Positions 38,426 through 40,789 of a stretch of 64,000 nucleotides of DNA are shown piece by piece. Each line of letters begins with the position of its first letter. The first letter of the stretch is position 1. The position numbers and the translations under genes were made by a program. The notes below the pieces were generated by a model. The model had not been told where the DNA came from. It saw only the letters and a list, made by a program, of their open reading frames with translations, and made no database searches. Source of the stretch: Bryobacterales bacterium (lineage in GTDB: Bacteria > Acidobacteriota > Terriglobia > Bryobacterales > UBA6623); the NCBI GenBank assembly GCA_963422375.2, contig OY729428.2, forward strand, positions 2,848,001 to 2,912,000, read 5' to 3'.

Positions 38426-40276
38426 TCAATCCCCCGCGACGAGTCCGGCGGCCCGCGGCGCGGCCGGAACCGCGGCGGCGGGCCCGGAGCGGACCGGGCT
38501 CTCGATCGCGGACCGGCCCGTCCCCTCGTTCACGATGACCTGCAGCGGATTCTCGGGGAGCTGGGACTCGTCGCGGACGCGCGATGTGCCGTAGACGTGG
38601 AAGGGCTGCTGGTCGTTGATCCGCCGGAGATCCTCCAGCGTCTGCTTGCGATGCTTCGGGATAAGGCGCGGGGGATCAGCGGTGTCGTTGGGCGGCAGGT
38701 CCCAGTTGAGGTGCAGGTGCTGCGAGAGCTCGGCTTCGGGCTCGCCGGCGAAGCGCATGGCGGGCCACTTGAACGCCGCGCCGTGGACGCGCTTGCCGCG
38801 CAGGTGGTAGAAGACCTTCGTTCCGATCTTGAAGTACTTTCTTGACCGCTCGCGCATCTCGCCGAAATCGCGGCTCTGCTTCCAGGCGGTCATTATGAAC
38901 TCCCACTGGAGCTGCGTGAGTTCCCTCGCCTTCATCGCATGCCCGGCGGCCATCCGCGTGTCCTCGAGCGGGGTGAAGATCGACGGGACGTAAAGCACCC
39001 TGTTGTCCTTCAGGCGGTGCAGCAGCTCGAGGGACTGCTTGATGTCGTCGTCGGTCTCGTTCGGCAGGCCGACGATGAAGGTGTACACCGGGAACCAGTT
39101 GTTGTCGTTCAGGATGTTGGTCCCCTCGACCACGATCTCCTGCCAGTCGCGAATGTCGAACGGCAGCGACTTGCCCGACATCGTCAGGGCGGCCAGGCGC
39201 GGCGAGCCGGTCTCGATGCCGATCAGCGGGGCGAGGAAGCGCTTGTCGGGGTGGGTCGAGTTGCGGTTCTGCAGGGCGCTCTTGCCGAGCAGGACGCGCG
39301 ACAGGTCGCGGACCAAGCCCGGGTTAACGACCGCCGGAGCGATCGTGGCGTGCGAGAGCGGGAGGTAGTCGACGCCGGACTCCTCGGCGATTGAGCCGTA
39401 GAAGTTCAGCATCTGGTGCGGGTTCGGAATGTAGAAAGGCGCCGAGGCGCCGTAGATGAAGACGTCCTCCGACACGGGGAAGATGATGCGGCCGCCGTTG
39501 CGGGTGTTCGCGCGGACGCCCGCCAGCACGTCCGGCAGGGGAACCGAGATGCGCGTCTCCAAGGTGGGCGAGCAGAATGCGCACTGGCGCCCGCAACCGC
39601 GATTCATCTCGACGATGCCGTAGGTCGAGCGCCTGCGCGGGATGATCAGATCCTCGACGCCGGGCTCGGGCGCATGGACCACGGGGGGCAGTTCCTTGCC
39701 GTCCTCGGCCAGCTGGAACACCTCGAGAATCTTCGTCTCGGCCCGGCCGTGGATGATGCAGTCGACGCCCAGGCGCTCCCGCGAGCCGGTCTTGTCGATC
39801 TGCCAGGCACCGGCCCCGCCCACGATGACCTTCGGGCGGTGCCTGCGGATTGCGGGGTGCCGGTACACGCGTTCCGACTCGGCCGCGTTGATCGGCCGGG
39901 CGGACGAGCCGAAGATGTTCGAATACACGCCCGTCGAGAATGCCGTTCCGATCGGATTGTGCGCGCCGACTCCCACGGCGACCGTGCGCGGCCCGACGAA
40001 CGTGCTCAGGTCGTCGGGATAGCACACGACCACCTCCTCGTCCGGGTAGTGCCTGCGCAGGACCTCCTCCGCGACCCGCACGCCGTAGGTCATCACCTTG
40101 GCGCTGCCGTCCGCGTAACGCGGCTGCTCGAACTTGTTCTTGTACAGGAACCGCGGCACGAACTGCGCCGGCGCGGACGCGTACATCATCTGCTTCCAAG
40201 GGCTGAAGGCCTGCTCGGTGCTCTCCGTGTCGGGAGCGGTCAAGACGAACTTTACGCCGTCGGTGCGATAGGCCAT
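38426..40276 (-). CDS. Radical SAM protein with N-terminal B12-binding-like domain (Grs-like family)
   Basis: RGCGRQCAFC (CX3CX2C), KVIVGGAGAWQ, IGIETGS, TFIVGLPNETDDD. Confidence 0.85.
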   Translation of the reverse strand: MAYRTDGVKFVLTAPDTESTEQAFSPWKQMMYASAPAQFVPRFLYKNKFEQPRYADGSAKVMTYGVRVAEEVLRRHYPDEEVVVCYPDDLSTFVGPRTVAVGVGAHNPIGTAFSTGVYSNIFGSSARPINAAESERVYRHPAIRRHRPKVIVGGAGAWQIDKTGSRERLGVDCIIHGRAETKILEVFQLAEDGKELPPVVHAPEPGVEDLIIPRRRSTYGIVEMNRGCGRQCAFCSPTLETRISVPLPDVLAGVRANTRNGGRIIFPVSEDVFIYGASAPFYIPNPHQMLNFYGSIAEESGVDYLPLSHATIAPAVVNPGLVRDLSRVLLGKSALQNRNSTHPDKRFLAPLIGIETGSPRLAALTMSGKSLPFDIRDWQEIVVEGTNILNDNNWFPVYTFIVGLPNETDDDIKQSLELLHRLKDNRVLYVPSIFTPLEDTRMAAGHAMKARELTQLQWEFIMTAWKQSRDFGEMRERSRKYFKIGTKVFYHLRGKRVHGAAFKWPAMRFAGEPEAELSQHLHLNWDLPPNDTADPPRLIPKHRKQTLEDLRRINDQQPFHVYGTSRVRDESQLPENPLQVIVNEGTGRSAIESPVRSGPAAAVPAAPRAAGLVAGD

Positions 40277-40354
40277 GCCGGTCCGAATCCTCCGTGCGTC
40301 AGCTGACGCTTACCTTAACTCTAGTGCTGTGCCGGCGAGGCCGCCGCGCAGCCG

Positions 40355-40789
40355 TCAGGCGGCCGCCCCGTGCGCCCCGTGCGCCGCGTGCCGCCGGATC
40401 GCGCGCAGCATGGCGTGCAGCCCGTTGCCCCGGGTGGGGCTGAGGTGCGCGGTGAAGCCGATCTCGTCGATGAAACCGTGACCCGCGTCGAGGATGGCTC
40501 GCGGCGTGAAACCCGAGTAGGCGCGCAGGAGCACGGCGATGAGCCCGGACACGATGGCGGCGTCGCTCGTGGCCGCGAAGTACACCCTGCCGTCCCGGCG
40601 CTCGGCCCGAAGCCAGACCTGCGCCTGGCAGCCCTTCACCTTGAAGAGGTCGGTCCGGAACTCCGACGGGAACGGCGGCAGCTTCCGCCCGAGGTCGATG
40701 AGGTGCTGGTAGCGGTCCATCCAGTCGTCGAGGAATTCGAACTCTTCGACAATCTCCCGGTGGACATCTTGAATGGACTGGCTGGTCAA
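40355..40789 (-). CDS. sufE: Fe-S cluster sulfur acceptor SufE
   Basis: WMDRYQHLIDLG, VKGCQAQVW, SDAAIVSGL, LSPTRGNGL. Confidence 0.92.
   Translation of the reverse strand: MTSQSIQDVHREIVEEFEFLDDWMDRYQHLIDLGRKLPPFPSEFRTDLFKVKGCQAQVWLRAERRDGRVYFAATSDAAIVSGLIAVLLRAYSGFTPRAILDAGHGFIDEIGFTAHLSPTRGNGLHAMLRAIRRHAAHGAHGAAA

Follow-up and report, generated by a model that had tools for sequence, protein, structure and literature searches.

The gene on the minus strand at positions 38426–40276 of a 64,000-nucleotide stretch of a Bryobacterales genome (contig OY729428.2, positions 2,848,001–2,912,000; hereafter the window) poses the question of which reaction this bacterium carries out with a protein resembling the archaeal Grs enzymes, and of whether the neighboring sufE gene takes part in it. 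The gene encodes a 616-aa radical S-adenosylmethionine (SAM) protein of the Grs family with a B12-type domain and exists in a single copy in the host genome (G000; 6.0 Mb, 96% complete). Comparison of sequences leads us to propose, giving the reading about even weight, that the product is a cyclopentane-ring synthase acting on branched membrane-spanning lipids.

The reading frame of 616 codons has an intact translation with zero internal stops. Nine of the motifs listed in a sequence-only reading of this DNA were found in the order given there, together with a conserved His in SHATI: VLTA at residue 11, YGVR at 64, GVGAHNPIG at 102, KVIVGGAGAWQ at 149, RGCGRQCAFC at 226, SHATI at 308, IGIETGS at 352, K.LPF at 369, LNDN.WFP.YT at 389 and VGLPNE at 402. 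Among 8000 scored candidates 2389 were homologues at E ≤ 0.001, with 62–88% identity for the top 120; the named ones are from Acidobacteria and Bryobacteraceae. A protein nearly identical to the homologue in another genome of the order clusters with one bearing the name Bryobacteraceae, and protein names of this kind suggest that the host belongs to a Bryobacterales family (f1) distinct from Bryobacteraceae. Most genomes of the host genus carry the gene with an intact frame at 82–88% identity. This is a real, conserved gene.

Its assignment to the Grs family, made in the same reading, is borne out by the agreement of the alignment with GrsB, a search of the genome and a tree. GrsB of Sulfolobus acidocaldarius (Saci_0240; Q4JC22, identified as GrsB by PMC13023045; P0490 in our set) is colinear with the query, with 28% identity over 440 columns. 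In a tblastn search of the whole genome with GrsB, the radical SAM gene was the sole match (E = 6e-47), spanning GrsB residues 26–443 of 528 (79%). These values lie within the Grs thresholds of Blum et al. (coverage ≥70%, identity ≥20%, E ≤ 1e-40, length ≥400 aa; bioRxiv 2022.08.15.504015), applied here to S. acidocaldarius GrsB; these authors set the same values against GrsA as well. According to the literature, GrsA (Saci_1585, WP_011278400.1/Q4J8I0) and TK0167 belong to the same family. When 1.84 billion representative proteins were searched with a profile, 234 matched at E ≤ 1e-30, and one branch of these led to Q4JC22. In the ESM Atlas the query sits at 0.99 beside mostly archaeal clusters, and one neighboring cluster is led by Acidobacteriota, as judged from members of known phylum. 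P0228 and P0254, which we take to be GrsA-like, match the gene with 30% (E = 2e-41) and 26% identity (E = 3e-35) and are placed outside its clade.

The tree had 57 rows, with 45 database proteins spanning a first tree and the GrsB branch (matches shorter than 440 aa were excluded) and with the genome's own sequences as an outgroup on long branches. The 52 family rows, GrsB included, were separated from HpnJ, from a B12 enzyme of class-B type and from MiaB, RimO and MtaB with a Shimodaira–Hasegawa-like approximate likelihood ratio test (SH-aLRT) value of 98. The query falls in a group of 12 rows (SH-aLRT 100), and those identified among them are acidobacterial. The group nests within a clade of 25 rows (SH-aLRT 99), in which the remaining named rows belong to Desulfurococcaceae, Thermoprotei, Korarchaeota and Asgard archaea, and Bathyarchaeota names occur among the relatives of these archaeal rows. 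Such nesting fits a transfer from archaea, as proposed by Blum et al.; an ancestor of many Acidobacteriota probably took up the gene from archaea. Acidobacterial homologues described earlier, from S. usitatus and from metagenome-assembled genomes (MAGs) of hot-spring Acidobacteriae, are at a similar distance from Sulfolobus Grs (25–30% identity) and are also nested among archaeal homologues. What appears to be new is the placement, from the tree, in an acidobacterial subfamily apart from GrsB; Dataset S2 of Garcia 2024 does not list unclassified Grs.

The architecture reported for GrsA/B (PMC13459092) consists of an N-terminal B12-type Rossmann domain, a partial triosephosphate isomerase (TIM) barrel with CX3CX2C and C-terminal helices, with no auxiliary cluster; the predicted model and the Cys inventory of the query match it. 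The AlphaFold2 model (predicted local distance difference test, pLDDT, 75; predicted template modeling score 0.77) has the cobalamin radical SAM enzyme MgmA as its best structural match (Z 17.5, 354 residues aligned, root-mean-square deviation 4.5), and a sequence search of the PDB gave no Grs or Gmm structure. The Rossmann-type domain (residues about 8–197; 39686–40255, minus strand) superposes in the model on the domains that bind cobalamin in methionine synthase (Z 8.5), photocobilin (Z 9.2) and methylmalonyl-coenzyme A mutase (Z 7.7), all modest scores. Cobalamin binding, though likely, is ranked as predicted because the Pfam B12-binding domain (PF02310) has no match to the protein; other B12-domain proteins are also encoded in the genome. 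In the radical SAM core, a partial TIM barrel (residues about 217–478; 38843–39628, minus strand), the CxxxCxxC motif (C228, C232 and C235; 39572–39595, minus strand) is that of a single radical-SAM [4Fe-4S] cluster. This motif is invariant in 22 Grs-family members, GrsB among them, as are His309, G353-x-E355, K369 and W378. The whole protein has five Cys, the other two at residues 85 and 173, and the inventory includes none for SPASM or methylthiotransferase auxiliary clusters. Residues 476–509 (38750–38851, minus strand) are helical in the model, with 10 K/R, 1 D/E and 7 F/W/Y, and may form a peripheral membrane anchor; since they are basic and aromatic and the protein has no transmembrane segment (top 19-residue Kyte-Doolittle mean 1.04), a peripheral membrane protein fits. 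The C-terminal tail (residues 572–616; 38429–38563, minus strand) is poorly conserved, predicted to be disordered (pLDDT under 50) and missing from most relatives in the 22-member alignment. The query shares with GrsB the colinear domains and helices, the single CxxxCxxC and the invariant residues, and differs from it in belonging to a separate clade and in being about 90 residues longer, the tail included.

The sequence-only reading had also counted Gms and Gmm as B12-domain relatives of GrsA/B. According to PMC11214058, Gms belongs to the SPASM/Twitch enzymes and lacks the B12 domain, and Gmm is 31% identical to MoeK5 and lies on a different branch. Gms has SPASM/Twitch auxiliary clusters and a COG4001 N-terminal domain, whereas the query has neither the SPASM Cys nor such a Pfam match; Tes also has auxiliary iron–sulfur (Fe–S) clusters, for which the query has no Cys. 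There is a likeness in that Gms, Tes and Mss use radical SAM chemistry to form C(sp3)–C(sp3) bonds in membrane lipids. Another likeness is to Gmm and its homologues Cgm, Pgm and Ted (bioRxiv 2025.10.20.683597), which are B12-binding radical SAM enzymes and peripheral membrane proteins acting on inert lipid chains. These four are MoeK5-like in the papers describing them, whereas the query is weak on class-B-type models and, by these scores, would lie on another branch.

Cyclase, methylase and cross-linker had all been offered as candidate activities. The cyclase is favored, the methylase is weaker and the cross-linker has no support, given the lack of auxiliary-cluster Cys. The characterized family members in the literature found (GrsA, GrsB and TK0167) are all ring synthases. 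We suggest that the protein, with bound cobalamin and at the inner face of the membrane, would close cyclopentane rings in branched membrane-spanning lipid chains that the host itself makes, by bonding a mid-chain methyl to a methylene four carbons away. The 13,16-dimethyl C28 (iso-diabolic) chain offers this methyl/methylene geometry, as in the brGDGTs (branched glycerol dialkyl glycerol tetraethers) Ib and Ic. By analogy with the GrsA/B proposal (PMC13459092), two SAM cleavages would give two 5′-deoxyadenosyl radicals, and the first substrate radical would be parked on cobalamin. SufE would contribute general Fe–S housekeeping only.

Which lipid could be the substrate depends on the pathway genes, and here the picture is mixed: a Tes-like gene is present, but canonical Tes and a Ger-type domain were not found. 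To our knowledge the host is without isoprenoid tetraethers, unlike the host of GrsB. The Tes-like gene (C1:1212294–1214393, L010) scores 324 bits with NF045702 (cut-off 450) and matches structure 7TOL with E = 1.6e-60; its 700-aa product keeps the three N-terminal Cys and the C-terminal Cys set. With this divergent protein as query, Tes-like matches were seen in 294 of the 301 genomes of the order and in 73 of the 74 genomes of the host family (f1; f2 and f3 below are other families of the order, and the family and order tallies count genome G215 as one row). Canonical Tes, scoring over the cut-off, is present in 47 of the 301 genomes, all in f2. The order thus contains at least two Tes types, canonical and divergent, as sequence scores define them. 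For the iso-diabolic acid synthase of Acidobacteria, the divergent protein is a natural choice of candidate. G061 and G193 carry yet another Tes-like type (about 315 bits, 500–550 aa).

The Ger/PlsA domain PF09989 occurs in all 47 genomes with canonical Tes. In f2 it was found in 36 of 46 genomes with a Grs homologue versus 52 of 176 without one, and canonical Tes was found in 17 of 46 versus 30 of 176; in these counts kin are not independent, and kinship and an anaerobic lifestyle could explain both associations. S. usitatus, a member of the same order, has a Grs homologue, makes cyclopentane brGDGTs and carries canonical Tes and Ger/PlsA along with ether lipids, whereas the host family has neither gene; the ether-linked brGDGT pathway proposed for S. 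usitatus was not found in the genome or in the 74 family members. As the Grs homologue is kept in 60 of these 74 genomes, this points to ester-linked substrates. An ElbD-type ether route was considered and rejected, the best PF07993 match being stand-alone and reductase-like, with no adjoining adenylation domain among the scanned genes. One paper gives no Mss homologue in selected acidobacterial genomes. Several reports are relevant to the substrate: PMC13023045, citing Chen et al. 2025, states that Tes without Ger yields iso-diabolic tetraesters; E. aggregans, with a sole Tes homologue at 32%, makes brGDGT at low oxygen (PMC8941075); and iso-diabolic acid is made by subdivision 3 (SD3) Acidobacteria (PMC13159169, PMC13274423). 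Since neither canonical Tes nor a Ger-type gene turned up, an ester-linked substrate is favored; by gene content, the likeliest one would be an iso-diabolic-type membrane-spanning lipid produced with the divergent Tes-like enzyme, not a finished brGDGT.

Genomic links to other lipid genes were seen in several relatives. G191 and G275 contain a co-oriented run (L061:7902–14810 and L062:4446–11354) in the order glycosyltransferase 2, divergent Tes, a small unassigned radical SAM protein of 420 aa and a 42%-identical Grs homologue; L117 and L178 likewise have the small radical SAM gene close to Grs homologues. A second B12 radical SAM gene of the class-B type, with a 528-aa product (G000:C1:1790141–1791724; L016:907–2490, plus strand) and no NCBIfam assignment, is present in 64 of 74 genomes of the host family. 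It is beside or near the Grs homologue in three of seven genomes of genus g19, and is divergent beside it in nine of 80 metagenome loci, apparently from one lineage (linked loci: L092:10477–12111, L164, L170, L173, L180, L215, L216, L222, L229 and L230). The tie between this gene and the Grs homologue in two lineages is a new lead, and its product is a candidate for the C5/C6 methylase that acts on iso-diabolic or brGDGT chains. In a broader and rather speculative extension, to which we assign a low probability, the subfamily, taken once from archaea, would be the missing brGDGT/iso-diabolic cyclase, and together with divergent Tes and the candidate C5/C6 methylase would form a three-enzyme, Ger-independent route to cyclized, methylated, ester-linked membrane-spanning lipids in the host family. 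If true, it would supply the genes behind the cyclization (pH) and methylation (temperature) paleoproxies, in a source family not previously known as such. As a separate observation, G013 and G100 carry an 855-aa adenylation–acyl carrier protein–acyltransferase fusion two genes upstream of their Grs homologue (L083:10053–12617 and L085:5186–7741).

A number of observations weigh against the ring-synthase assignment. A single clade uniting the acidobacterial group with the GrsB group was rejected by the approximately unbiased (AU) test (P = 2.9e-14, 32 rows; this value is optimistic, as the grouping was chosen after viewing the 57-row tree), and therefore the gene is a Grs homologue and not a GrsB ortholog. 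Its nearest archaeal relatives are uncharacterized proteins, and no characterized member of the query's subfamily was found. The literature covered, which left most subscription papers and bioRxiv supplements outside, held no functional test of a bacterial Grs homologue. Related B12 radical SAM enzymes switch chemistry easily, an example being the Ted desaturase amid methylase homologues (bioRxiv 2025.10.20.683597). On the side of the substrate, canonical Tes was found in none of the 74 genomes of the host family, the host included (NF045702 cut-off), and PF09989 was found neither in the host genome nor in any of the 74, with a match in Thermotoga as positive control. The divergent Tes-like protein is without one Cys group of canonical Tes and scores below the NCBIfam cut-off, so that membrane-spanning lipids here are putative. 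Just 17 of the 46 f2 genomes with a Grs homologue have canonical Tes, and no neighbor was conserved across genera in 41 loci. The gene is also patchy, with homologues in 108 of 301 genomes of the order and 30 of 251 in the phylum, and within the host genus it was not found in nine of 30 genomes. Copies that are split, duplicated or broken were seen in the family members G014, G001, G116, G050, G064 and G022 (G050 has three partial copies), reflecting either real decay or assembly errors.

These points bear on the alternatives in different ways. The enzyme could act on the same branched membrane-spanning lipids with other radical chemistry, namely C5/C6 methylation, desaturation or cross-linking, which we consider fairly unlikely. 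The query's subfamily is uncharacterized and apart from GrsB, methylases and a desaturase are among the B12 radical SAM enzymes that act on tetraethers, and the closest solved fold, MgmA, is a methylase; methylated iso-diabolic acids do occur in Acidobacteria with their enzyme unassigned, and within the same scope of literature we found no assigned brGDGT methylase. Against methylation, the lipid methylases described in the literature resemble MoeK5 (31% for Gmm, E = 9e-63), whereas the query does not exceed 42 bits on any NCBIfam model and, from these weak scores, would not be Gmm-like; moreover, the class-B-type enzyme at C1:1790141 is a better methylase candidate in this genome. Cross-linking as done by Gms and Tes requires the auxiliary clusters for which the query has no Cys. 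It is less probable, though still conceivable, that the substrate does not span the membrane, the host family making no tetraethers, and is, for example, an iso-branched acyl chain in a bilayer lipid, or else a hopanoid or some other isoprenoid. The canonical Tes and Ger-type domain missing from the 74 genomes would agree with that, as would the hopanoid genes of the genome (HpnH 400 bits, HpnJ 734 bits) and the other function suggested in PMC11868695 for GrsA homologues in Cloacimonadota without Tes. This substrate is opposed by the near-universal divergent Tes of the order, by the reported making of iso-diabolic acid in SD3 Acidobacteria, by the Tes-like gene beside the Grs homologue in two genomes, and by the annotated neighbors of 40 loci, among which no hopanoid gene adjoins a Grs homologue.

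That the protein is an unrelated B12 radical SAM enzyme akin to HpnJ/BchE or to MiaB, or else a relic in decay with no current function, seems highly improbable. Behind it stand MiaB-like folds and weak scores with MiaB/RimO models (38 bits with TIGR00089, the MiaB/RimO/MtaB-type model, cut-off 251), together with the patchy loss and broken copies among relatives; the ESM Atlas also labels the nearest clusters ‘MiaB family’. We rejected this label, as the score is low and the genome's own MiaB is over its cut-off, as are its RimO, MtaB and HpnJ. Methylthiotransferases require three N-terminal Cys, and this set is missing from the query. The query does not cluster with HpnJ/BchE-like enzymes, in line with the sequence-only reading: the HpnJ model gives 13.1 bits versus a cut-off of 577.6, no BchE model is among the NCBIfam matches at E ≤ 0.1, and no NCBIfam model is over its cut-off (best 42 bits). 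By the GrsB tblastn search and the 57-row tree, unrelatedness of this kind is largely refuted; a relic is opposed by the frame kept intact in most of the genus and by presence in most genomes of the host family.

The idea that acidobacterial Grs homologues act as cyclases is not new. It has been in print since 2022, when brGDGT cyclases were proposed by Chen et al. (bioRxiv 2022.04.07.487437) and by Blum et al.; the same proposal is made by Halamka et al. (PMC10087280), and Grs homologues have been surveyed in Black Sea MAGs (PMC11868695). Past pH and temperature are commonly reconstructed from the ring number and methylation of brGDGTs. For the ring step in bacteria the gene described here is one more sound candidate, and for methylation the linked second B12 enzyme is one.

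As to sufE (40355–40789, minus strand; PF02657, E = 5.9e-45; sole copy in the genome), the radical SAM gene does lie just downstream of it in the same orientation, separated by a 78-bp spacer. The further claim that the two are coupled, with SufE as the supplier of sulfur, did not survive comparison with relatives. Counting linkage within flanks of 0.8–9 kb, we saw sufE linked to the Grs homologue in the host genus (11 of 21 genomes) and in a second, related genus (three of three), and nowhere else: not at the 11 host-family loci from other genera, nor at f2 and f3 loci, nor at 109 further loci from the phylum and metagenomes. In some genomes other genes sit between the two. A dedicated unit, in which SufE would feed sulfur to the cluster of the enzyme, is in our estimate quite improbable. 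It could draw on the shared orientation and short spacer, on the linkage held in two genera and on the distance of sufE from sufB/sufD (C2:68.9–71.7 kb). Opposed to it are the intervening genes, the absence of linkage in 10 of the 21 genomes of the same genus and in all those other loci, and the single CxxxCxxC cluster, which implies no extra sulfur demand, the protein having no sulfur-insertion cluster. A scan for promoters and terminators gave none, as chance would predict, and no terminator-like site was seen between sufE and the radical SAM gene; co-transcription is possible by this arrangement and, even if real, would be no proof of dedication. The adjacency is probably inherited synteny and incidental, and it adds nothing to the functional assignment.

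Other features are of minor interest. Among the hopanoid genes of the host genome (L056:6899–9963 and L059:7233–8669), HpnH, over its cut-off, is behind a probable squalene–hopene cyclase (labeled from translation), while HpnJ is elsewhere. A plasmid search gave no match. In the window, a major facilitator superfamily (MFS) transporter gene (37057–38407, plus strand) converges on the radical SAM gene; it appears to be split over two frames, with the N-terminal helices read from 37057 and the rest from 37505, and would therefore carry a frameshift or an assembly error. A fragment of a coenzyme A-transferase family III gene (36411–36998, minus strand) covers profile positions 1–68 of 366 only and is likely a remnant. 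By their translations, two transposase-like open reading frames (ORFs) are within 31800–33724: one at 31800–32150 (plus strand), presumably an IS1595-like fragment, and one at 32873–33724 (minus strand), which we take to be an IS630-like ORF. A gene for a cadherin-like repeat protein (33365–35611) adjoins them.

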